DNA of 32,000 nt from an uncultured Chloroflexia bacterium (GTDB taxonomy: Bacteria; Chloroflexota; Anaerolineae; Anaerolineales; Anaerolineaceae), in assembly GCA_963704755.1 (NCBI GenBank), contig OY969938.1:4350001-4382000 (forward strand), in the 5' to 3' direction. The position numbers and the translations under genes are program-made. Shown here piece by piece: positions 3,692 through 21,325 of this stretch. Position 1 is the first letter of the stretch. Each line of letters opens with the position of its first letter. The notes below the pieces were generated by a model. The model was not told where the DNA came from. It saw only the letters and a list, made by a program, of their open reading frames with translations, and ran no database searches.

Positions 3692-4498
3692 ATGGCAGAA
3701 ACCGATTCTATTGCGTTGAACACCGAAAACCAGGATATCTGGGACACCAACGCCGAATTCTGGAACGAGCGCATGGGCGATGACGGCAATCAGTTCCACC
3801 TGAATATTGTCCGGCCGGCCGCGGATCGCTTGCTGGGGATCCAAAATGGTGAGATGGTTCTGGATGTGGCCTGCGGGAATGGCTTGTTTTCCCGCCACCT
3901 GGCCGACCAGGGCGCCTGTGTAATCGCCTGCGACTTCAGCCGCAAGCTGCTGGAGCTGGCGGCCAAGCGCTCGGTGAGTTACATTGGCCAGATCGAATAC
4001 CGTTATATCGACGCCACCGATGTGGACCAGATCCGGTCGCTGGGGCTGAGGCGTTTCGACGCGGCGGTCTGCAATATGGGGCTGATGGATATGGCTTCCA
4101 TCGATCCGCTGCTCAAGGGCCTGGCGCAGGTCCTGCGTCCGGGAGGGCGGTTTGTATTCACCTTGATGCACCCCTGTTTCAATAACCCTTCCTGCCGGCT
4201 GGGGGCCGAGGAAGAAGACCGGGAAGGGGAGTTGCTGACGACTTATTACGTCCGCACCAGTCGTTACCTGAACCAGGCTCCGGCCAAGGGACTGGCGATT
4301 TTAGGGCAGCCGCGACCGCAGTATTATTTCACCCGTACCCTCAGCCAGTTGCTCAACACATGCTTCGCGGCCGGCTATGTCGTGGACGGGTTGGAAGAGC
4401 CGCCAATCCCGCCGGAATGCCAGCCGAAACGAGCCCTGGATTGGTTCAATTTCCCCGAGTTTCCACCGGTGCTGGCCGTGCGCGTTCGCCTGCCTTAG
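3692..4498 (+). CDS. Class I SAM-dependent methyltransferase
   Basis: SAM-binding motif I VLDVACGNGLFS, followed by the acidic loop VIACDFS and motif LRPGGRFVF. Substrate is not inferable. Confidence 0.8.
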   Translation: MAETDSIALNTENQDIWDTNAEFWNERMGDDGNQFHLNIVRPAADRLLGIQNGEMVLDVACGNGLFSRHLADQGACVIACDFSRKLLELAAKRSVSYIGQIEYRYIDATDVDQIRSLGLRRFDAAVCNMGLMDMASIDPLLKGLAQVLRPGGRFVFTLMHPCFNNPSCRLGAEEEDREGELLTTYYVRTSRYLNQAPAKGLAILGQPRPQYYFTRTLSQLLNTCFAAGYVVDGLEEPPIPPECQPKRALDWFNFPEFPPVLAVRVRLP

Positions 4499-5214
4499 GC
4501 CTGGGGAATTGGCCGTTTGGCCGGCAGCCCAACCCGGCGAGGATAGCCTGGCGGGGTCGCGGCGACTTTATCCACCACAATTAAATAGCGTTGTTCGCTT
4601 ACCCCGGGGAGTTCGACCGGGATGAGCTGGCGTAGATGCCCGCCCAGGATGTGAATGGCCCGCTCGGCGGTTTGGGCTTCGGCCGGGCCGGCTTCCCCTT
4701 TTTGGGCCAGCATGCCGCCGCCTATACGGACCAGCGGCAGCAGGTATTCGGATAGCACCGGCATGGTGGCTACCGCCCGTGCGATGGCCCAATCGTATTG
4801 CTCGCGGTGACGTTTATCCGTCCCCAGTTCTTCAGCGCGAGCCTGGATCAGCGTTACCCGCTCCAGGTTGAGCGTTTCCACAATGTGCCGGCAGAAATCC
4901 AGCTTCTTCCCGATCGATTCGACCAGGGTCAGGTTCATCTGGGGAAGGAGGATTTTCAAAGGGATGCCCGGAAAACCCGCTCCGGTGCCGATATCGATCA
5001 GGCTTTCTGGCGGGCGGTTCTTCCAGGCTTTTAAACAGGTGAGCGAATTGAGGAAATGTTTGCTGCGAATCCCCTCCGAATCGCGGATAGCCGTCAGGTT
5101 GAAGCGGGAATTCCACTCGAGTAATTCCCCTTCATATTTTTCAAATGCGCCAATCTGGCGCGCCGTGAGTGAGATCCCCAACAGTGATTTAGTATCTTGG
5201 GACAATTTATCCAT
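4495..5214 (-). CDS. rsmG: 16S rRNA (guanine527-N7)-methyltransferase RsmG (GidB)
   Basis: LLEWNSRFNLTAIRD...HFLNSL...IDIGTGAGFPGIPLKI is the typical GidB/RsmG pattern. Length 239 aa. Its stop overlaps the convergent methyltransferase stop (cTTAg, 4495-4498). Confidence 0.9.
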   Translation of the reverse strand: MDKLSQDTKSLLGISLTARQIGAFEKYEGELLEWNSRFNLTAIRDSEGIRSKHFLNSLTCLKAWKNRPPESLIDIGTGAGFPGIPLKILLPQMNLTLVESIGKKLDFCRHIVETLNLERVTLIQARAEELGTDKRHREQYDWAIARAVATMPVLSEYLLPLVRIGGGMLAQKGEAGPAEAQTAERAIHILGGHLRQLIPVELPGVSEQRYLIVVDKVAATPPGYPRRVGLPAKRPIPQA

Positions 5215-5265: not shown

Positions 5266-5294
5266 TTGACTTTCAACTGCATTTGTTATAAATT
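5266..5294 (+). promoter_or_regulatory. Candidate sigma70-type promoter of the ABC binding-protein gene
   Basis: TTGACT (5266-5271), then 17 nt, then TAAATT (5289-5294), inside a strongly AT-rich 240-bp intergenic region. Sequence pattern only. Confidence 0.35.
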
Positions 5295-5302
5295 TAATAA
5301 CT

Positions 5303-5325
5303 ATTACAAATAATCTATTTGTAAT
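5303..5325. promoter_or_regulatory. Perfect 10-bp inverted repeat, candidate operator
   Basis: ATTACAAATA-atc-TATTTGTAAT lies immediately downstream of the candidate -10 element. Confidence 0.35.
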
Positions 5326-5457
5326 AACTCGAATAACAATAATCCTGATCCAATTACTAGAAAACAATTTATCCATAAAGGAGGTGATTAGAGGGAACTT
5401 ACCTCTCATTTTTTTAATTTTATTCGCCAAAGCTTTGATCCACAAAGGAGGAGATAA

Positions 5458-7128
5458 ATGAAAGGCCGTTTTGTCTATGCAGTTTTTGCAGTACTCATAG
5501 TCGCCAGCATGGCACTGGCCGGGTGTAGTTCTGCTCCGGCAGCCCCGACGGTGGCCCCTACCGCAGCCGTCAAGGATAACTACACTCCTATGACTGTCTC
5601 GGCGCCAAGTTGCGATTATGGCGGTGAATTTAAACAAATCGAAACCGTTGACGAGTACACAGTCAAGTTCACGCTGTGCTATTCCGATCCGGCTTTCGCT
5701 TCGAAAGCAGCTTTCTCTGTATTCTCGATCGCAGATAAAGAATCACTGGATGCTGCTGGCGGTGATTCCGTAAAGATGAGCGATGCGGTCAATGGCACTG
5801 GCCCCTACACACTCCAGGAATGGGTGCGTGGCGACCGGATCATCTTCAAGTCCAACCCCACTTACTGGGGCGGCGAACCGGCGATTAAGACCTTGATTTT
5901 CCGCTGGTCCGACCAGTCTGCTCAACGGTTGCTGGAGCTACAATCCGGTACGGCCGACGGTATCGATAACCCGGCCCCGGAAGATTTCGCCACCATCGAA
6001 GGCGATTCGAACCTCAAGCTGTACAACCGGGCACCGTTGAACGTATTCTACATCGGGTTCAACAATACCATTCCGCCATTCGACAACCAGGACGTCCGCA
6101 CGGCAATTGCCTACGCTATCGACCGCCAACGGATTGTCGATCAGTATTATCCTGAAGGTTCGTTAGTAGCCAAAGTCTTCGTTCCCCCGGAGATCAAGCC
6201 CGGTTACAACGATTCGGCATCGTGGTACGACTATGACCCGGCAAAGGCTAAAGAGTTTTTAACCAAGGCCGGCTACCCGGATGGTTTGGAAATCACGCTG
6301 TCCTACCGCAATGTAGTGCGCAGCTACCTGCCCACACCGGACAAAGTTGCCCAGGAAATCCAGGCCCAATTGGCCCAGGTTGGAATCAAGGTTGACATCA
6401 ACCAGGAAGAATCGACCACTTTCCTCGACAACACTTCCGCCGGTAAAGAAGGCTTCTACCTGTTGGGTTGGGGTGCCGATTACCCGGACGCGACCGATTT
6501 CTACGACTATCACTTCGCCGCTTCCACCAACCTGCAGTTTGGTACACCGTATCCTGATCTGGTGGACGCGATCCGCGCGGCCGGCCAGGTTGCCGATGCA
6601 ACCGTGCGCCAGACCGACTACGATAAGGTTAATGACCTGATCAAACAGTACATCCCCATGATCCCGGTAGCCCATGGCGCTTCCGCCACGGCTTACAAGG
6701 CCAATGTCCAGGGCGCTCACGCTTCACCGCTGAGCAACGAGCAGTTCAGTGTGATGAACAATGGCACCGATCAGTTCGTGTGGATGCAGAACGGTGAACC
6801 GGCTGCCCTGTGGTGTGCAGACGAGACCGATGGCGAGTCCCTGCGCGCTTGCGAGCAGGTATACGAAGCGCTGTTAGGCTACAAAGTGGGCGGCACGGAA
6901 GTTGTCCCAGGCCTGGCTGAGACCTGGTCCTCCAACGCCGATGCGACCGAATGGACGTTCAACTTGCGCCATGGCGTTGCCTTCCAAAACGGCGCCGGGT
7001 TCGACGCCAGCGATGTGGTGGCCTCATACGCTGCCCAGTGGGATGCCTCCAGCCCGAACCATAAAGGCCGTACTGGCAGCTTCGAGTACTTCACTGCCTT
7101 CTTCGGCGACTTCATTAACAAACAGTAG
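5458..7128 (+). CDS. ABC transporter substrate-binding lipoprotein, family 5 (DppA/OppA-like), apparently circularly permuted
   Basis: Signal peptide with lipobox LAGC and a strong SD AAAGGAGGAG. GTGPYTLQEW...NPTYWGG...LQSGTADGI is typical of the middle of family-5 proteins. The canonical N-terminal block (YEALLGY..GGTEVVPGLAETW..WTFNLRHGVAFQNG..DASDVV..FEYF) lies at the C-terminus instead. Confidence 0.85.
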   Translation: MKGRFVYAVFAVLIVASMALAGCSSAPAAPTVAPTAAVKDNYTPMTVSAPSCDYGGEFKQIETVDEYTVKFTLCYSDPAFASKAAFSVFSIADKESLDAAGGDSVKMSDAVNGTGPYTLQEWVRGDRIIFKSNPTYWGGEPAIKTLIFRWSDQSAQRLLELQSGTADGIDNPAPEDFATIEGDSNLKLYNRAPLNVFYIGFNNTIPPFDNQDVRTAIAYAIDRQRIVDQYYPEGSLVAKVFVPPEIKPGYNDSASWYDYDPAKAKEFLTKAGYPDGLEITLSYRNVVRSYLPTPDKVAQEIQAQLAQVGIKVDINQEESTTFLDNTSAGKEGFYLLGWGADYPDATDFYDYHFAASTNLQFGTPYPDLVDAIRAAGQVADATVRQTDYDKVNDLIKQYIPMIPVAHGASATAYKANVQGAHASPLSNEQFSVMNNGTDQFVWMQNGEPAALWCADETDGESLRACEQVYEALLGYKVGGTEVVPGLAETWSSNADATEWTFNLRHGVAFQNGAGFDASDVVASYAAQWDASSPNHKGRTGSFEYFTAFFGDFINKQ

Positions 7129-7137
7129 TTTCTGTCC

Positions 7138-7174
7138 AAAGGCCTGCCTGGTACAAAAAATCGGCAGGCCTTTT
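7138..7174 (+). terminator. Intrinsic terminator/attenuator after the binding-protein gene
   Basis: aaaGGCCTGCC-14 nt-GGCAGGCCtttt lies 10 nt after the stop codon. The stem is GC-rich and is followed by a T run. Confidence 0.6.
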
Positions 7175-7193
7175 GGTAAGGTTTGACCTTTCA

Positions 7194-7232
7194 GGTGGTG
7201 TTTTCCGGTTCGTAAAGCCGGAAAACACCACC
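7194..7232. other. Perfect 15-bp hairpin
   Basis: GGTGGTGTTTTCCGG-ttcgtaaag-CCGGAAAACACCACC. This is the second of three stem-loops between the binding-protein and permease genes. Confidence 0.6.
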
Positions 7233-7284
7233 GAATTAACCGATAAAAATTCGTAACCACTCCAACCAGGGTTGAGGCGTTATC

Positions 7285-7333
7285 GAATTTGAAATGTTTT
7301 CGGGAGCTTTGCCTGACTAAACACTTCAAATTC
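7285..7333. other. 15-bp inverted repeat (1 mismatch) with a 19-nt loop
   Basis: GAATTTGAAATGTTT...AAACACTTCAAATTC. This is the third stem-loop in the same intercistronic gap. Confidence 0.5.
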
Positions 7334-7451
7334 ACGCTTCTTGTCTGTGCGGCTGAGAGTTACCAGAATTCAGGCTTTCTGCATGGATGGCCATTGAAGA
7401 AACCGGCTGTCCTTGTGCAGGTAAGCTATTATTCCAAATTGAGATAAATTC

Positions 7452-8528
7452 ATGGGACGTTTTATAGCTCGGCGTTTGGTTTTGCTAATCCCGGTTGCGA
7501 TCGGCATCTTGCTGGTCACTTTCCTGATCGTGCACAGTATCCCTGGTGATCCTTGTGTGGCGATGTTAGGAGAACGGGCAACCCCGCAGAAGTGTGAAGC
7601 ATTCAAGCAGCGCTATGGTCTGGACAAAAATATTGTGGTCCAGTTTGGCAGTTATATCAGCAATATCGCCAGGGGTAATTTTGGCGATTCGATTCGTTTC
7701 ACCCGCCCGGTCACGGATATCCTGGCCGAACGCCTGCCCATGACGATCGAATTGACCATCTTTGCGATGTTATTCTCGACGTTCTTCGGGATTTTACTGG
7801 GAATTATCTCGGCGCTGAGACCCAATACGGCCCTGGATACCGTGACGATGATCGGCGCAAATATTGGGGTATCCATGCCGGTTTTCTGGCTGGGGTTATT
7901 GCTGGCCTATTTCTTTGCGCTGATCCTCAAGAATACACCTTTCTTCATCCCGCCTTCGGGCCGTTTGAGTGCCAGCATGACCTTGCATTCTTTGGCCGAT
8001 GTGTGGGGGCTGCAAAACCTGACCGGCATCAAGCACTTCATCGTTTATTTCTTATCCAGTTCGGCAATCTTTAACAGCATTGCTACCGGCAACTGGCTGC
8101 AGCTTAAAGATGCCTTGTGGCATTTGATCCTGCCTTCGGTAGCCGTCGGCACCATCCCCATGGCGATCATCGCCCGCATGACCCGTTCGACACTGGTCGA
8201 GGTGATGCAGCAGGATTACATCCGCACAGCCCGCTCCAAAGGCTTAAGGGAACGTACCGTAGTGACTTTACACGCCATGTGCAACGTGATGATCCCCATC
8301 ATTACCATCATCGGGATCGAGACCGGTTCGCTGCTTTCGGGGGCCGTGCTGACCGAGACGGTCTTTGCCCTGCCGGGGGTAGGCACAGCCCTGGTGAGTG
8401 CCATCCTGGCTCGCGATTACCCGGTGGTGCAGGGCTTCACCCTGGTCATTGCCATTATTTTTGTGGTCATCAATCTGGTCGTGGATATTTCTTATGCGTA
8501 CCTGGATCCACGGGTGCGTCTGGATTAG
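7452..8528 (+). CDS. ABC transporter permease (DppB/OppB-like)
   Basis: The N-terminus IARRLVLLIPVAIGILLVTFLIVHSIPGDP, and the EAA-type loop DYIRTARSKGLRERTV, are typical of peptide/nickel ABC permease subunit 1. Confidence 0.88.
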   Translation: MGRFIARRLVLLIPVAIGILLVTFLIVHSIPGDPCVAMLGERATPQKCEAFKQRYGLDKNIVVQFGSYISNIARGNFGDSIRFTRPVTDILAERLPMTIELTIFAMLFSTFFGILLGIISALRPNTALDTVTMIGANIGVSMPVFWLGLLLAYFFALILKNTPFFIPPSGRLSASMTLHSLADVWGLQNLTGIKHFIVYFLSSSAIFNSIATGNWLQLKDALWHLILPSVAVGTIPMAIIARMTRSTLVEVMQQDYIRTARSKGLRERTVVTLHAMCNVMIPIITIIGIETGSLLSGAVLTETVFALPGVGTALVSAILARDYPVVQGFTLVIAIIFVVINLVVDISYAYLDPRVRLD

Positions 8529-8542
8529 TCAGGAACGATATT

Positions 8543-9475
8543 ATGAGTGCAAATGTTGCTATTTTAGGGGAAGGTACCAAAGTCGCTCCCGAATCGCCCA
8601 CCCGTGAAGCGGTCCGGCGGTTGTTACATCACCGCTCGGCCCAGGTTGGAATGATTATTCTGGGGCTCATGTTGTTTTGCGCAATCTTCGCTAAATGGAT
8701 TGCCCCTTACAATCCGACCTTACCACTGAACAACGTCGTCCGGCGGGCGCCACCCTGCGTACACCTGTTTGGCTGTCCCGCAGACCAGCCCCAGCATATT
8801 TTCGGAATCGATGGTAACAGCCGCGACCTGTTCTCGCGGGTGATTTATGGCTCACGCCTTTCGCTTCAGATCGGGGTGGCGACCATCAGCTTCGCCATCG
8901 TGATCGGCGGCATCATCGGGGCCATCGCCGGTTTTGTGGGCGGCTGGATCGACGACGTGCTGATGCGCACCATGGACGTGTTGATGGCCTTTCCCAGCCT
9001 GCTGCTGGCCATTGCCATCGTCAGCGTGCTGGGCACGGGGTTGATCAACGCTCTGCTGGCCATTGGGATTGTTTCGATTCCAAGATACGCGCGCCTGGTG
9101 CGCTCCACGGTGATCTCGATCAAGGAGTTAGACTATGTCACCGCGGCGCGATCACTGGGCGCAACTCAAGGGCAACTGCTTTTCCGCCACATCCTGCCCA
9201 ATTCGCTGACGCCGTTGATCGTCCAGGCCACCCTGGGGATCGCGACGGCCATTCTGGATGCGGCAGCGCTGTCCTTCCTGGGCCTGGGCGCTGAACCACC
9301 CACACCTGAATGGGGCTTAATGTTGGGCGAGGAACGCAACAGCATTTTCAATGCGCCTCACCTGGTGATTTTCCCCGGTATCGCTATCATGCTGACCGTG
9401 CTGGCCTTCAACCTGCTGGGGGATGGTCTGCGGGATGCTTTGGATCCACGCTTGCGCGGAACGGCGGCCGGGTAA
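8543..9475 (+). CDS. ABC transporter permease (DppC/OppC-like)
   Basis: The ORF track ORF 8117..9475 is trimmed to the ATG at 8543 (MSANVAIL...), 15 nt after the previous stop. The upstream part overlaps permease 1 and is His/Arg/Gly-rich nonsense. The EAA loop DYVTAARSLGATQGQLLFRHILPN is typical of subunit 2. Confidence 0.85.
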   Translation: MSANVAILGEGTKVAPESPTREAVRRLLHHRSAQVGMIILGLMLFCAIFAKWIAPYNPTLPLNNVVRRAPPCVHLFGCPADQPQHIFGIDGNSRDLFSRVIYGSRLSLQIGVATISFAIVIGGIIGAIAGFVGGWIDDVLMRTMDVLMAFPSLLLAIAIVSVLGTGLINALLAIGIVSIPRYARLVRSTVISIKELDYVTAARSLGATQGQLLFRHILPNSLTPLIVQATLGIATAILDAAALSFLGLGAEPPTPEWGLMLGEERNSIFNAPHLVIFPGIAIMLTVLAFNLLGDGLRDALDPRLRGTAAG

Positions 9476-9487
9476 TATAATCAGCAC

Positions 9488-10243
9488 ATGACGCATCGAT
9501 TTTACCTGCCCACCTCTGCTGTTCAAGGTGAGCAGGTTTTATTTCCCCAGGATGTTTCCCGGCAGATCACCCGGGTGCTGCGCCTACGGCCCGGCGCGGA
9601 GGTGATCGTTTTCTGCGGCGATGGCAGCGAAATCAAAGTAACCCTGTCCGTGCTGGACGCGGCTCAAACGGTAGGCGCCGTGCTCGAAAAATCGAACAAC
9701 CTGGCCGAACCAAAAGCCCAGGTGACCCTGTTCATCGGGCTAACCCAGCGCGAAAAGTTCGAATGGGTGCTGCAAAAGTGTACCGAGGTGGGGGTGAGCT
9801 CTTTTGTACCGCTGATCAGCGAGCGCAGCCTGGTCCAGTCCGCGCGGGAATTCGAGAACAAACAGCAGCGTTGGGAAAGAATCCTGCTGGAGGCAGCCGA
9901 ACAATCCGGGCGGGGGATCGTGCCGGGGCTGACCGCACCGCTGTCCTTTGCCGATGGGCTCGACCGGCTCGGCGGGCTAGAATTGGGGCTGTTTGCCTGG
10001 GAAGAGGAAAGCCGGCACAACCTGGATGAAGCGTTGGCCGGGAACGTGACAGCTCGTCAGATCGGCCTGATGGTTGGCCCGGAAGGCGGGTTCAGCCCGC
10101 AGGAGGCCCGGCAGGCGCAAACCGGGGGTTGGCAGCCGGTCAGCCTGGGCAAGCGTATTTTGCGCATGGAAACTGCCGCGGTGGTGGCTTCGGCCCTGGT
10201 GATCGATTATTTCGATAGAATGACCGCTCACCCCAATCGGTAA
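9488..10243 (+). CDS. rsmE: 16S rRNA (uracil1498-N3)-methyltransferase RsmE
   Basis: The N-terminus MTHRFYLP, the KFEWVLQKCTEVGV block, and C-terminal GPEGGFSPQE...LGKRILRMETAA match the SPOUT RsmE pattern. Length 251 aa. Confidence 0.88.
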   Translation: MTHRFYLPTSAVQGEQVLFPQDVSRQITRVLRLRPGAEVIVFCGDGSEIKVTLSVLDAAQTVGAVLEKSNNLAEPKAQVTLFIGLTQREKFEWVLQKCTEVGVSSFVPLISERSLVQSAREFENKQQRWERILLEAAEQSGRGIVPGLTAPLSFADGLDRLGGLELGLFAWEEESRHNLDEALAGNVTARQIGLMVGPEGGFSPQEARQAQTGGWQPVSLGKRILRMETAAVVASALVIDYFDRMTAHPNR

Positions 10244-10247
10244 GGAG

Positions 10248-10302
10248 CCCGAAAACGAGGTGTTTGCTCAGGCTTCGCCCGAGCAAACACCTCGTTTTCG
10301 GG
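10248..10302. terminator. Perfect 22-bp hairpin between convergent rsmE and rsmF (bidirectional terminator-like; member of a palindromic repeat family)
   Basis: CCCGAAAACGAGGTGTTTGCTC-aggcttcgccc-GAGCAAACACCTCGTTTTCGGG. No flanking U tract. A related copy is at 119-173. Confidence 0.6.
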
Positions 10303-10334
10303 AATCCCTTAATCAGAGCTTGAGCAGATAAAAA

Positions 10335-11825
10335 TTAGAATAGTCGACGTGGAAGCAGGTTGCGCAGCCGTCCGGGTTGGACCCGCCCGCGTCCAAGAAT
10401 GCGGTCGGCAGTATCCCGCACGACGACCACGCCGGAAGGCGCCGGCCCGGCCGTAAAATCTCCGTCCAGGTCACTGCCGCTCAACCAGGCCGCCTCACTG
10501 CCTTCGGGCAGGGTGAGGCAACCGGCCTGGAATTGGGCGCCGAAACGGGAGACCCATTCGTGGGAGGGGGTCCATCCCTGGGGCGATTCCTCGGCCAGTT
10601 TGAGGCCGAGCAACTGGCAGGGCAAATCGCGGAAGCCGGCCAGGAAGCGCAGTGGCACGGCGTAAATCGCTCCGGGGCTATGCCACAAGTCCAGCTCCAG
10701 GTCCGCCAAGGTCGCTTCCAGGTCGAAACCGTAGCTATTGCGGAATAGATCGAGGATTTCGGCCGCCTCCTTGCGGTGAAGGGGCTGCTGGCCAACCTGG
10801 CTCAACGGTCGGGCCGGGGCCGGCTGGGATTGAGTTGGGATGGAACCGGTCTTGCGGATCAAGGCGGCGAAAAAGCCGGAAGTGCCATAGCGCTGAGGCC
10901 ACAAGCGGGCCGCGTTTTGCACCTGGGGATCAAAGTCCTGGCCAAAGGCGGCCGGCAGGGCCGGGGCCGGAACGGGCAGCTTGTCTCCGGGCGCAAGGAT
11001 TTCCACATCCTGCGGAAACCGCGCCAGGATTTCATTCAAAACAGCCTCGTCCTCTTCGGGGGCCAGGGTGCAGGTAGAATAGACAATTTGGCCGCCTGGC
11101 TTGAGCGCGGCTAACGCGGAGGCCAGTAAGGCAACTTGCCGGCGGGCCAGGGTGCTCTGCTCGCGGGACGAGATCGGACGCATGGGGTGGGCATCGGTCG
11201 AGCGCAGGGACTGCATGCTGCAGGGCGCATCCAGGAGGATGCGGTCGAAGGTTTCGGGAAACCAGCTCCCGAATTTCTCGCCGGGGAAACGCGTCACGGC
11301 CACATTGGCTGCACCCCAGGTTTGCAGCACGTAACGCAGGGCAGTAATCCGTTCGCCGGCCGAATCGTTGGCGATCACCAGGCCGCGGTCCAGGCTGCGG
11401 CTGATCAGGTGAGTGGTCTTGCCGCCCGGCGAAGCGGCCAGGTCGAGGATCAGCGGCTGGTCGGCCGGGTCCAGGTCGAACAGCTCGACCGGCAGCATCG
11501 AGGCCGCGTCCTGGATATAATAATGGCCCATGCGGTGTTCCAGCGTCTGGCTGACCGGCTCTGGGCTGGATTTGACCCACCAGCCAGTGGGGCAGTAAGG
11601 CACCCGCTCCAGCTCCCAGCCGTAGCGGGAAGCCCAACCGGCTTCATCACCCGGGACGGCTTTGAGCGGGTTGCTGCGCAGAGCCGGGTAGAGCGGTTTG
11701 TCCAGCTCATCCAGCAGCGTCTGGAAATCTCCGGGTGTGAGCAGGCTTTGGAATCGTTCCAACGAGGCTGCCTGAGCGTCCAGGGAGGGGGTAGGGGAAG
11801 TCGAGGTTTTCTTTTTACGGCTCAT
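10335..11825 (-). CDS. rsmF: 16S rRNA (cytosine1407-C5)-methyltransferase RsmF (YebU-like, NOL1/NOP2/Sun family)
   Basis: YYIQDAASMLP, LDLAASPGGKTTHL, LLDAPCS, YSTCTL, GFFAALIRK, plus the C-terminal LGLKLAE...RLRNLLPRRL domain, are colinear with E. coli RsmF as I remember it. The ORF is open to a TTG at 11840. The ATG at 11825 is preferred because it forms an ATGA overlap with the stop of the upstream Rmt-like reading frame. Confidence 0.82.
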   Translation of the reverse strand: MSRKKKTSTSPTPSLDAQAASLERFQSLLTPGDFQTLLDELDKPLYPALRSNPLKAVPGDEAGWASRYGWELERVPYCPTGWWVKSSPEPVSQTLEHRMGHYYIQDAASMLPVELFDLDPADQPLILDLAASPGGKTTHLISRSLDRGLVIANDSAGERITALRYVLQTWGAANVAVTRFPGEKFGSWFPETFDRILLDAPCSMQSLRSTDAHPMRPISSREQSTLARRQVALLASALAALKPGGQIVYSTCTLAPEEDEAVLNEILARFPQDVEILAPGDKLPVPAPALPAAFGQDFDPQVQNAARLWPQRYGTSGFFAALIRKTGSIPTQSQPAPARPLSQVGQQPLHRKEAAEILDLFRNSYGFDLEATLADLELDLWHSPGAIYAVPLRFLAGFRDLPCQLLGLKLAEESPQGWTPSHEWVSRFGAQFQAGCLTLPEGSEAAWLSGSDLDGDFTAGPAPSGVVVVRDTADRILGRGRVQPGRLRNLLPRRLF

Positions 11826-12663
11826 AATTTTTGGATACAAAAAACCAGCTCGTTGTGGAGCAGCAGCTCGTGAACGGGCCAGTCCAATCCTTCCAGGGTG
11901 GTGGTTACCAGCTTGCGCTGTTTTTCGGCCAGGTCGTGGCGCCCGGTCAGGCTGGAGGCTGGCAGCGAGACCAGCAGCCAGCGCACGTTGAGCGCCTGCC
12001 AGAAGGCCCGGTTGCAGCCCTTCTGGCGCTGCTCGAAGCGATGGGCTTCTTTAAAAATAAGGCCACGTCCGCCTCGAGCTCGGGGGGTTGGACCAGGATG
12101 TCCTGGTGACAGGCGCCGCCATTGGCGCCGCTGAGCTTGAGGAAGCGGTCGATCAAGGCCACCCGCGGGTGGTGCAGGTCGAAGGCGTGATAACTTGTAC
12201 CGGCCGGCAGGCCCATCCAGGGCAGGCCGAAGGGGTGCAGACCGCAGGCCAGGTCGAGGATCGAGGCCGGCCGGCAGGTTGCCTGCCAGAGTTGGGTGTA
12301 AAAATCGGCCAGTGAATTGATAGGCTCGCTGCGCTCGCGGGTAGAGGCGTGGCTGGCGAGCATTTCCTGGCAAAAGTCTCGGACCGCCTGAGCGTCGCCG
12401 GAAGCAAAGGCTGTTTCCATTACCTGGCCGGCCTGGGCGTAGTCCGGGTCGCCTAGGTAAGGTGCGACAATGTTGTGCAGCTTCTCGCGCACGGCCTGTT
12501 CGATTTGCTTGTGGCTGCGGCCGGGCAGGGCTTCCTGAGCGACCAGGTCACGCAGGGTGCTGTCGGGCAGGTCGAGGTTTTTGTATTTTCGCGCCGCACG
12601 GATCTCGTCCAGGTAGGATTGGAGGTCCGCAGGCTGGGTGGCTATGGAATTGGATTTTTTCAT
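11822..12663 (-). pseudogene. FmrO/Rmt/ArmA-family 16S rRNA (guanine1405-N7)-methyltransferase paralog 1, interrupted by a 1-nt frameshift
   Basis: ORF 11947..12663 carries ARKYKNL..., HASTRER and ILDLACGLHPFGLPW, as in RmtB/Sgm-type enzymes. Homology continues in ORF 11822..12373 (LIFKEAHRFEQ...VSLPASSLTG...ELVFCIQK). The switch is at the A5 run 12053-12057 (T5 on the coding strand), and one extra T restores ...DVALFFKEAHRFEQ... Confidence 0.8.
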
Positions 12664-19418: not shown

Positions 19419-20231
19419 TCATTTCCTGGTCAGCAGATAGGCCAGCTCCCCGGGAAAATCGAAACGGCGGGCGTCGAAGGGCAGGCCGGCCAGCAACTCC
19501 AGAAAGTGAGCGTCGTAATTGCTGCGCATACCCTTGCTCTTACCGCCCAGGCTGTGCGCCGGGAAAGTTACCAGGATGTGCTCGGCCTGGATGCCGCCCA
19601 ACAGCCGCCGGCCGATGGCTTTATCGACCTGCTCCAGGCAGGGGATGGTTTTGAGCAGCAGCGCCAGTTGGACCGGCTGCTGCGGCACGGATTGGGTCAG
19701 GTCGCAGACACTGGCCTGGCCGGCGATGGCAAAGTGGGCGAAAAACCGGTTCAGGAAGGCAGCCTGGTCGGCGTAAATATCGCAAACCTGGAGGGTGACA
19801 TCCGGCGAAAGAGGCATCCAACTGAAGGCCAGGGGATTCAGGCCACAAGCCAGGTCCAGCAGCGAGCGCAGTGGTTGGATAGGCGCCAGAGTTTCGGCGT
19901 AGAAACGTTCCAGGTAAGGCAGGCGTTCGCGGGTGGAGGTGTGCTCGGCCATCATTTCCAGGCAAAACTGGCGGGCCGGTTCGCTGTGAACGTCGCCCAG
20001 CAGACCGGCCAGGCGCTCACTCCACTTCGTATAGACGATGGGTTTTTCCTGGTAAGCGCCGCCCACCTGGTGCAGTTTATTACGCACTGCCTTGACCAGC
20101 TCCTTGCGGCTGCGGCTGTTGGCCAATTCGCGTTCGAGCAGCCGGCGGACGAAGCCGGGGTCGATGGGGGCGTATTTGGCGCCGGCCTGCACCTCGGCGA
20201 CCAGCTCGTCCAGGTCGGCCGGGGAATTCAC
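19419..20231 (-). CDS. FmrO/Rmt/ArmA-family 16S rRNA (guanine1405-N7)-methyltransferase paralog 2 (aminoglycoside-resistance type)
   Basis: AKYAPID..., HTSTRER, LLDLACGLNPLAFSW, ALLLKTIPCLEQ, TFPAHSLGGKSKGMRSNY and ELAYLL are colinear with RmtB/ArmA/Sgm as I remember them. A GTG start overlaps the upstream TGA (GTGA). Confidence 0.85.
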   Translation of the reverse strand: MNSPADLDELVAEVQAGAKYAPIDPGFVRRLLERELANSRSRKELVKAVRNKLHQVGGAYQEKPIVYTKWSERLAGLLGDVHSEPARQFCLEMMAEHTSTRERLPYLERFYAETLAPIQPLRSLLDLACGLNPLAFSWMPLSPDVTLQVCDIYADQAAFLNRFFAHFAIAGQASVCDLTQSVPQQPVQLALLLKTIPCLEQVDKAIGRRLLGGIQAEHILVTFPAHSLGGKSKGMRSNYDAHFLELLAGLPFDARRFDFPGELAYLLTRK

Positions 20232-21325
20232 GGCTGCTCCTGCCGTATGCGGTCGGTGAGCTGGGTCATAAAGCGCAGGTTGTGCAGGGTAGCCAGGCGC
20301 AGGTATAAGCCGTCGTTGAGCTTGAACAGATGGTGCAGATAACCCAGCGAGTAATGCCGGCAGGTAGGACAGTCACAGAACTGCGATACCGGCTGGTCGG
20401 CTTTGATGTGCTGCTCGTCGTTGATGTATAGGTATTTGAGCCAATCGCCGCTCAAGCTGCCCGGAGAGCCGGCCGGTTGGGTGAAGGTGTACAGCCGGCC
20501 GTGGCGGGCATCGCGGGTGGGCATGGCACAGTCGAAGATGCCGTAGCCCATGCGGTACCCGGAGAGCACGTTGTGCGGGTGGCCGATCCCCAGGGCATGG
20601 ATGGGGAATTCCTGCGGGACCAGCGAGCGGGTATATTCCAGGATCTCGCTTAGGAGCTGGCCCTCGGAATCCAGCGGCCAGCCGCCAAATCCATAACCAT
20701 CGAAGCCGAGTTCCAGCAGCGCTTCGGCGCAGCGTTTGCGCAGGTCGAATTCACCGCCGCCCTGGATGACCGCGAACAACCTGGGAATTTGGCCGGCGGG
20801 CAATTTCTTCTGGGCAATCTGGCGATCGAACTCGGCCCGGGCGCGTTTTGCCCAGCCAATCGTCCGGCCGACCGATAGCTCCTGCTCGCTGCGGGGTGCA
20901 TCTACGTGAGTGCAGTCGTCCAGGCAAATGACCACATCGGCGCCGTAAGCCAACTGCAATTGGATGCCTTTTTCAGGGGTCAACTGAAACTTGCGCGTGT
21001 TGCCTTCCGGCTGAAAGGTGATTCCACGATCGTCCATTTTGCCGAATTTAGGGTTGTTGCGAATCAACGAGTAAGCCTGAAAACCACCCGAGTCGGTAAT
21101 AATCGGGTGGGGCCAGGAACTCATCTTGTGCAGCCCCCCCAAGGCCTGGATGGTGCTGGAACCAGGGCGCTGCATCAGGTGAAATGTATTCATCACCGCG
21201 GCCCGGATCTGGACCGCTTCCAGGTCGCGTGAATCGATGGTACGCACGACCCCAAAGGTTGCGTCTGGCATAAATACCGGGAATTCGAGCGTGCCATGAA
21301 GGAGTTGGAGTGAATTAACCTGCAT
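20228..21325 (-). CDS. Divergent tRNA-guanine transglycosylase (TGT) family protein
   Basis: TGT motifs FPVFMPDAT, ITDSGGFQ, LDDC, FDCAMPTRDARHG, and the Zn site CDCPTCRHY...LHH are present. The canonical GYAIGGLAVGE pocket segment is replaced by GYGFGGWPLDSEG, and LMGVGTP by ALGIGHP. SD GAGGA lies upstream. Confidence 0.8.
   Translation of the reverse strand: MQVNSLQLLHGTLEFPVFMPDATFGVVRTIDSRDLEAVQIRAAVMNTFHLMQRPGSSTIQALGGLHKMSSWPHPIITDSGGFQAYSLIRNNPKFGKMDDRGITFQPEGNTRKFQLTPEKGIQLQLAYGADVVICLDDCTHVDAPRSEQELSVGRTIGWAKRARAEFDRQIAQKKLPAGQIPRLFAVIQGGGEFDLRKRCAEALLELGFDGYGFGGWPLDSEGQLLSEILEYTRSLVPQEFPIHALGIGHPHNVLSGYRMGYGIFDCAMPTRDARHGRLYTFTQPAGSPGSLSGDWLKYLYINDEQHIKADQPVSQFCDCPTCRHYSLGYLHHLFKLNDGLYLRLATLHNLRFMTQLTDRIRQEQP

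Follow-up and report, generated by a model that had tools for sequence, protein, structure and literature searches.

A stretch of 32,000 nucleotides from an uncultured Chloroflexia bacterium (contig OY969938.1, positions 4,350,001 to 4,382,000; called the window in the following) contains an open reading frame (ORF) at 5458-7128 that encodes a substrate-binding protein (SBP) of the type used by ATP-binding cassette (ABC) transporters. As judged from its sequence, the product is confirmed to be a circularly permuted lipoprotein of the DppA branch of family 5, i.e., of structural cluster C. The family is known, the topological variant is new, and among Chloroflexota it is an old and widely distributed one. 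The best overall explanation of the data, a permuted, peptide-binding lipoprotein of the Dpp type that arose by duplication, is in our opinion very probable.

The permuted order is evident from all searches. The Pfam model SBP_bac_5 (PF00496) detects the protein with 293.8 bits (gathering score 32.4, E = 2.6e-87), the match being split into two stretches. Likewise, the full-length NCBIfam models of DppA, SapA, GsiB, NikA and OppA each match in two stretches and stay far under their equivalog cutoffs. Among the PDB sequences, phmmer aligns residues 456-553 of the query with residues 47-152 of Yersinia DppA (5f1q; 49.9 bits, 2.5e-12), and residues 60-433 with 154-532 of the same chain (177 bits, 6.9e-51). 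For E. coli DppA (1dpe) the pairs are 467-547 with 31-117 and 59-431 with 125-502, and HbpA/GbpA (3m8u) also yields two stretches in swapped order. In none of the searches with Pfam, NCBIfam, phmmer and Foldseek did a canonical profile or a PDB chain align colinearly over its full length, and no PDB chain aligned colinearly across the junction, neither by sequence nor with low root-mean-square deviation (rmsd) by fold.

The order becomes simple when mature E. coli DppA is written twice. The query then aligns in a single colinear block, residues 60-545 to DppA 126-507 followed by 1-115, with an alignment score of 608 compared to 453 for single DppA and with a gap of one residue where the C-terminus of DppA meets its N-terminus. 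Outside residues 1-30 and 118-124, the DppA sequence used in this comparison agrees with the one in the phmmer alignment. The original prediction, which had been made from the letters of the DNA alone, had claimed a family-5 lipoprotein with swapped block order, a junction near residue 437 (nucleotide ~6766) and a split match to SBP_bac_5. Its blocks and coordinates were correct, and the split match was obtained.

All parts of the chain are encoded on the forward strand. The core, residues 60-437 (5635-6768), is the equivalent of DppA 126-507 according to phmmer, the doubled-DppA alignment, the homolog alignment and Foldseek; from the latter half of the extra domain it passes through lobe 1, crosses the hinge into lobe 2 and, after a second crossing, leads to the strands of the canonical C-terminus. 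The invariant ligand residues R288, Y290, W338 and D341 all lie in this core. At the junction, residues 431-441 (SVMNNGTDQFV; 6748-6780), the canonical C-terminus runs head-to-tail into the mature N-terminus of the canonical order, hardly any linker being added between them. The relocated N-block, residues 438-545 (6769-7092), corresponds to DppA 1-115 in phmmer and in both alignments; the family motif WC[SA]DETDG and the invariant cysteines 453 and 465 are located in it. One and the same DppA segment, 116-125, is the counterpart of both new termini, just as had been proposed. On the N-terminal side it is overlapped (DppA ~116-125) by a conserved segment, residues 44-59 (5587-5634; consensus PMKVEAPxCDYGGEFK). 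On the C-terminal side the tail, residues 546-556 (TAFFGDFINKQ; 7093-7128 with the stop codon), is a second copy of it. This tail and the N-terminal YGGEFKQ both resemble DppA 116-125, which means that a few residues are present twice. The overlapping remnants, FFGxFLNA in the C-terminal tail and YGGEFKSI near the N-terminus, are both equivalent to DppA ~119-125.

The predicted fold is compatible with this picture. With 60 homologs, AlphaFold builds one globular model with a predicted local distance difference test (pLDDT) score of 90.2 and a predicted template modelling (pTM) score of 0.85. The pLDDT is <50 in the tether (residues 23-35), 61-70 in the C-terminal tail, which is modelled as a helix, and ~79-97 in the relocated block (438-540); the segment 44-59 has a block pLDDT of ~90, with a short strand modelled at 46-48. 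The best Foldseek matches in the PDB are DppA (5f1q, 1dpp) and GbpA (3m8u), with an rmsd of 2.4-2.7 Å over 376-394 columns and template modelling (TM) scores of 0.62-0.69. Liganded, i.e., closed, structures fit best. The match length of ~390 is the size of the colinear part; Foldseek aligns sequentially and by itself cannot confirm the position of the relocated block.

According to the DppA structure papers of 1995, lobe 1 of DppA is said to comprise residues 1-33, 183-260 and 479-507, the extra domain 34-182 and lobe 2 261-478. With these boundaries, both new ends should be inside the extra domain, which is specific for cluster C, and the chain should still cross the hinge twice. In the 60-sequence alignment two pairs of cysteines are invariant and specific for the family, Cys52/Cys74 near the new N-terminus and Cys453/Cys465. 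Each of the pairs probably forms a disulfide.

The permuted order is old and has become fixed in a large clade of Chloroflexota. The 120 best protein clusters (512-595 amino acids, 62-100% identical, 92-100% query coverage) are permuted without exception; the names among them are Bellilinea, Leptolinea tardivitalis, Thermoflexus and Anaerolineae. Scanning a single genome for each species yielded at least 410 genomes with the motif WC[SAI]DETDG or TVKF[TS]LCx[PS]D, of which the best 80 were inspected (loci L001-L080). All of these belong to Chloroflexota, and all 80 have the permuted order, with 52-78% identity to the query; the closest is a metagenome-assembled genome of Bellilinea sp. (78%). 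Their matches run colinearly from query residues 1-56 to 554-556, apart from one contig-truncated locus that starts at 117. Among them are an isolate, Leptolinea tardivitalis YMTK-2, and a complete genome, that of Leptolinea sp. HRD-7; the host classes, by NCBI taxonomy, are Anaerolineae, Thermoflexia and Ca. Thermofontia. These relatives share the order, a point that the original prediction had proposed to check.

The trait extends to remote relatives. An exhaustive search covered 1.84 billion cluster representatives, and the best 150 at 50%-identity clustering were examined. About 108 of these are permuted, down to ~31% core identity, and proteins of canonical order turn up only below ~280 bits. 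The permuted representatives inspected, the most divergent ones included, stop 0-10 residues after the part aligned with the query, at FFGxF or close to it, and divergent members that bear a taxon name are always Anaerolineae or Chloroflexota. A split version made of two genes seemed to be indicated by hits of ~430 and ~150 amino acids; these sequences proved to be internal-start calls, contig-end fragments or frameshifts.

All members inspected are either tethered lipoproteins or are placed C-terminal to other modules. As a C-terminal module of long proteins the type-1 permuted domain, as we call the order of the window protein, is seen in P0123, P0125, P0193, P0128, P0139, P0150 and P0175. 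Its N-terminal partners are a Ser/Thr kinase, caspase plus FHA, a double zinc ribbon or a Peripla_BP_6 binding protein, and its position suggests a use as extracellular sensor domain. Annotation may suffer from the permutation: Profile models split such proteins into two hits, and some members are publicly labelled 'hypothetical protein' (NCBI records of P0151, P0276, P0277, P0280, P0297, P0493 and P0537). We suspect that the split match is the cause of these labels.

As to function, the ORF product is predicted to be the membrane-tethered SBP lipoprotein of an ABC importer of the Dpp/Opp type, and it would be a working one that binds peptides. This reading is based on the confident fold, the invariance of the ligand residues and the gene order SBP-DppB-DppC. 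In DppA, Asp408 and Arg355 reportedly clamp the termini of the dipeptide, together with Tyr357 and Trp405. R355, Y357, W405 and D408 of DppA correspond to R288, Y290, W338 and D341 of the window protein, all of them invariant in 60 homologs. Most likely, the ligands are short peptides with free termini that would be bound in Venus-flytrap style, Asp341 being the predicted anchor for the alpha-amino group and Arg288 that for the carboxylate. The SBP gene is followed on the same strand by a permease gene of the DppB/OppB type (7452-8528; BPD_transp_1_N and BPD_transp_1) and one of the DppC/OppC type (8543-9475; OppC_N and BPD_transp_1; the ATG at 8543 was taken from the ORF translation). At least 50 of the 80 related loci have kept this order.

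With DppA (1DPP, 1DPE, 5F1Q) and HbpA/GbpA (3M8U) the window protein has all sequence blocks in common, the colinear part being ~30% identical. It further shares with DppA the peptide-clamping Arg, Tyr, Trp and Asp and the DppB/DppC-type permeases encoded alongside. It differs from DppA in its order, 126-507 then 1-115, with the new termini in the extra domain; in the conserved N-terminal segment (PMKVEAPxCDYGG) and the two invariant family-specific Cys pairs; and in being a Pro/Thr-tethered lipoprotein. Of the disulfide cysteines of DppA, the mappable ones (6, 234, 422) are not conserved, and the window protein does not reach the DppA equivalog cutoff.

Most likely, the type-1 lineage originated by duplication, fusion and truncation. 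In a first step a canonical gene would have been duplicated head-to-tail in tandem; an in-frame fusion would then have removed the stop codon, the spacer and the second signal peptide; and finally the outer parts would have been lost. This route is assigned to type 1 because of the analogy with younger types and because of the terminal overlap. It had already been envisaged in the original prediction. The terminal remnants, the natural doubles and the fusion signatures in relatives now speak in its favour, yet it is unproven for the lineage itself.

Several forms of the kind presumed as intermediates are extant. P0145 (L082 1609-5217), a complete gene on a 7.5-kb contig, encodes 1202 amino acids in the order N-block, core, N-block, core; P0240 (1600 amino acids) is a similar, canonical tandem-fused double. 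Both carry extra C-terminal domains. The middle of a canonical fused double has exactly the type-1 order. Tandem arrays are also found: In L070, three type-1 permuted genes are lined up head-to-tail 5' of dppBC (6001-11340), and L057 and L073 have a second copy. The arrayed genes are 52-68% identical to the query.

A second type (P0121, P0460; 575 amino acids) shows per-block identities of 62-76% with the window protein. Behind its own signal peptide and tether, it presents query residues 275-556, a linker of ~11 residues and query residues 45-274. It thereby keeps both type-1 termini in series: FFGSFLNAE-SAVSQLVDTNG-LLSLSAPDCEYGGEFKSIE. Its alignment to a doubled P0080, a type-1 protein, is colinear through the junction, with 72% identity over 540 amino acids. 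From this colinear match and the termini in series it therefore follows that type 2 is a second permutation of an already permuted gene. Four contigs, from four JGI samples, carry the gene intact, and so does an ENA scaffold, apart from scaffold Ns; two further assemblies have frameshifted copies. Its loci are L081 489-2216, L086 7001-8728, L087 3007-4734, L088 658-2385, L085 6443-8077 and L083 6116-7846, the last one frameshifted. In all contexts that are long enough the operon reads dppD-dppF-SBP-dppB-dppC, and independent clusters cover the junction by 99-100%. An AlphaFold model of type 2, built from a shallow alignment of 12 near-identical sequences, was uninformative (pLDDT 46.6, pTM 0.37). 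The type-2 linker AVSQLVDTNGLL (P0121 ~332-343) and the hydrophobic core of the signal peptide of type-1 P0080, FVLSLVIVATMLL, are identical in 5 of 12 positions. Speculatively, the linker might be a degenerate fossil of the signal peptide of the second copy.

A third type is a young permutant. The P0262 family (L089 5418-7193; 591 amino acids, a complete lipoprotein gene from Anaerolineales) has the order core C-part, N-block, core N-part. Its new ends are the same as those of type 2, but its N-block is joined to the core in a canonical-like way without the type-1 scar. The 120 best relatives comprise 54 proteins of the same order and 66 canonical ones, with similar identity per block (71-92% in the examples listed). 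Compared to a doubled canonical P0508, P0262 has 87% identity over 525 amino acids. There is a single gap, 33 amino acids long: copy 1 lacks its last 3 residues, and copy 2 its signal peptide, lipobox and linker. To judge from the alignment, this is the signature expected from duplication, fusion and truncation. The family-5 fold in Chloroflexota is thus very likely a recurrent hotspot of permutation, with at least three events whose stages are extant.

A naturally occurring circular permutant among ABC binding proteins has been described before, Tp0684 / TpMglB-2 of Treponema pallidum ('Type Ic / Cluster Bc') (PMC4990184). There too, the canonical N-terminal ~100 residues are found at the C-terminus, the protein is a tethered lipoprotein, and its C-terminal part escapes a colinear match in sequence searches (PMC4990184). 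The differences are clear-cut. TpMglB-2 belongs to cluster B and binds sugar, whereas the matches of the window protein are all to family 5 / cluster C. The TpMglB-2 chain crosses the hinge a fourth time (PMC4990184), which is not expected for the window protein. The permuted block of TpMglB-2 is 13% identical to EcMglB (PMC4990184), compared to 40-45% to DppA here, and its origin is barely traceable, in contrast to that of the window protein's family. In searches of the full-text literature outside subscription-only journals, neither another natural permutation of an ABC SBP besides TpMglB-2 (PMC4990184) nor a permuted protein of family 5 / cluster C was found; within the same coverage, the claim that no permuted protein of the DppA/OppA type had been described holds true.

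The family is accordingly a second case of natural circular permutation among the SBPs of ABC transporters, much larger and better traceable, and apparently, as far as found, the first one for the peptide-binding cluster C. Permutation by duplication is a general concept for natural circular permutants. The present family conforms to it by being colinear to a doubled canonical protein, by the fused doubles seen in nature and by the overlapping remnants at the new termini. What sets it apart is that successive stages coexist in one phylum. The steps are preserved in living genomes as tandem arrays, fused doubles and an old permutant, and the later ones as a re-permuted derivative that keeps the earlier termini and a young permutant whose canonical sibling is 87% identical. 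Such matched pairs offer themselves for measuring how permutation affects folding, stability, ligand binding and docking. Moreover, three naturally tolerated breakpoints, DppA ~116-125, ~341/342 and the joined canonical termini, may serve as engineering sites for permuted peptide sensors.

A number of observations weigh against the explanation preferred here. The score with the DppA equivalog NF043070 is 242.4 bits versus a cutoff of 1005, and family-5 proteins bind many ligands. ATPase genes do not adjoin the SBP-DppB-DppC operon, neither in the window nor in most of the loci L001-L080 (at least 50 of 80). That the relocated block takes the canonical position is deduced from 40-45% sequence identity and from the high pTM of the model. 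The fused doubles P0145 and P0240 are only 31-42% identical, and a fused double close to the type-1 lineage was not found among the relatives examined. Finally, a neighbour-joining tree of 95 permuted and 17 canonical sequences, un-permuted beforehand, does not show a single permuted clade; it has long branches and short internal nodes, and it places P0159, P0164, P0178, P0216, P0219, P0231 and P0247 together with P0234 near the canonical sequences.

The divergent placement of P0234 and the seven others is either an artefact of the tree or the result of an independent permutation at the same site. These proteins lack the Cys52/Cys74 pair. Their C-terminal breakpoint, FFGGF plus 1-6 residues, is that of the others. 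A single origin of type 1 is likely, albeit unproven, because the breakpoint is common to all.

The ligand might be something other than a peptide, such as a metal chelate, an opine, a sugar or glutathione, or the protein might mainly act as a sensor. The score far under every NCBIfam equivalog cutoff would fit such a role, as would the diversity of family-5 ligands (NikA, AccA, GbpA and sialic-acid binders are among the PDB matches) and the fusion of the same domain to signalling modules in relatives. The best matches, however, are consistently DppA, HbpA and SapA, the residues that clamp the peptide termini in DppA are invariant, and Dpp-type permease genes are located 3' of the SBP gene. 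A ligand of another kind is therefore unlikely, and a peptide stays our preferred one.

About equally doubtful is an adaptive value of the permutation itself. With the N-terminus displaced, the tether, lipid or transmembrane, would be attached at the tip of the extra domain instead of at lobe 1, with the proposed effect of an altered reach to the permease or another membrane partner, or of a better C-terminal sensor module. If this were true, relocation of the tether would have been selected for the way in which an SBP or sensor module reaches its partner in the membrane. What makes the idea more interesting is that Ser/Thr kinase, caspase-FHA, zinc-ribbon and Peripla_BP_6 modules are found N-terminal to the permuted domain; the inspected members that lack such partners are all tethered. 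A corresponding idea for tethered SBPs had been put forward by the authors of the TpMglB-2 study (PMC4990184), and three permutations in one phylum suggest opportunity or selection. Yet canonical-order relatives of the same phylum are lipoproteins as well and are also fused behind modules (P0239, P0515), and type 3 coexists with canonical siblings that are 87% identical. Neutral fixation of the permutation is the default.

For TpMglB-2, recombination with a different SBP gene was suggested as a possibility (PMC4990184). A corresponding mosaic, in which the C-terminal block would stem from another SBP gene instead of a duplication of one gene, is quite improbable here. Of course, the N-block is about 42-45% identical to DppA and the core only about 30-35%, and the poor resolution of the neighbour-joining tree leaves room for such an event. 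However, canonical comparisons also show the N-block as the more conserved region, canonical C- and N-termini meet precisely head-to-tail at the junction, and the two younger permutations bear clean signatures of one-gene duplication. Duplication of a single gene is thus favoured over a mosaic.

That two tandem SBP genes were merely collapsed or mis-joined by assembly, the permuted ORF being absent from the organism, is already refuted by independent assemblies: Tandem arrays in relatives could provide raw material for a mis-join, but the permuted order cannot be a misassembly, because it recurs, with identical breakpoint, in all 80 inspected genomes, isolate and complete ones included, and in all 120 best clusters and the 108 divergent representatives, and the ORF is intact with signal peptide, ribosome-binding site and stop codon and gives a confident AlphaFold model.

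The gene itself has the usual signals, all read on the forward strand. The ORF (5458-7128) starts with ATG, ends with a stop codon and encodes 556 amino acids. It is preceded by a ribosome-binding site, GGAGG (5447-5451), 6 nucleotides upstream of the ATG. Translation and alignment reveal a lipoprotein signal peptide (5458-5526) with the lipobox L-A-G-C; its Cys23 is conserved in at least 90% of the 60-sequence homolog alignment. The tether that follows, residues 24-43 (5527-5586), is rich in Pro, Thr and Ala, and its length varies among homologs. In the AT-rich leader, a promoter-like site, TTGACT-17-TAAATT (5266-5294), matches the consensus only, and the count of such matches does not exceed that in shuffled sequence. 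Directly 3' of it, there is a perfect 11-nucleotide palindrome, TATTACAAATA-N3-TATTTGTAATA (5302-5326), which is a candidate operator.

The spacer between the SBP gene and dppB (7129-7451) is unusually long, 323 nucleotides, and contains four inverted repeats. Directly 3' of the stop codon, a hairpin, AAAGGCCTGCC-N14-GGCAGGCCTTT, is followed by TTGG (7138-7173, forward strand). The terminator scan did not call it; it could possibly be a partial terminator or a stabiliser. A second hairpin with a perfect 15-bp stem (7194-7232, forward strand) precedes the permease gene and has no Rfam match; for leader and spacer together, the Rfam scan gave chance hits below threshold only. The spacer may set the ratio at which binding protein and permease are expressed.

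The operon is embedded between genes of RNA modification. On its 5' side, rsmG is encoded on the opposite strand, and an RsmE-type methyltransferase gene lies 3' of dppC. Around the locus the window encodes RsmG, RsmE, an RsmB/F-type protein, an rRNA methyltransferase of the FmrO family and a tRNA-guanine transglycosylase, the coordinates of these genes being 4495-5214 (-), 9488-10243 (+), 10335-11840 (-), 11947-12663 (-) and 20228-21325 (-).

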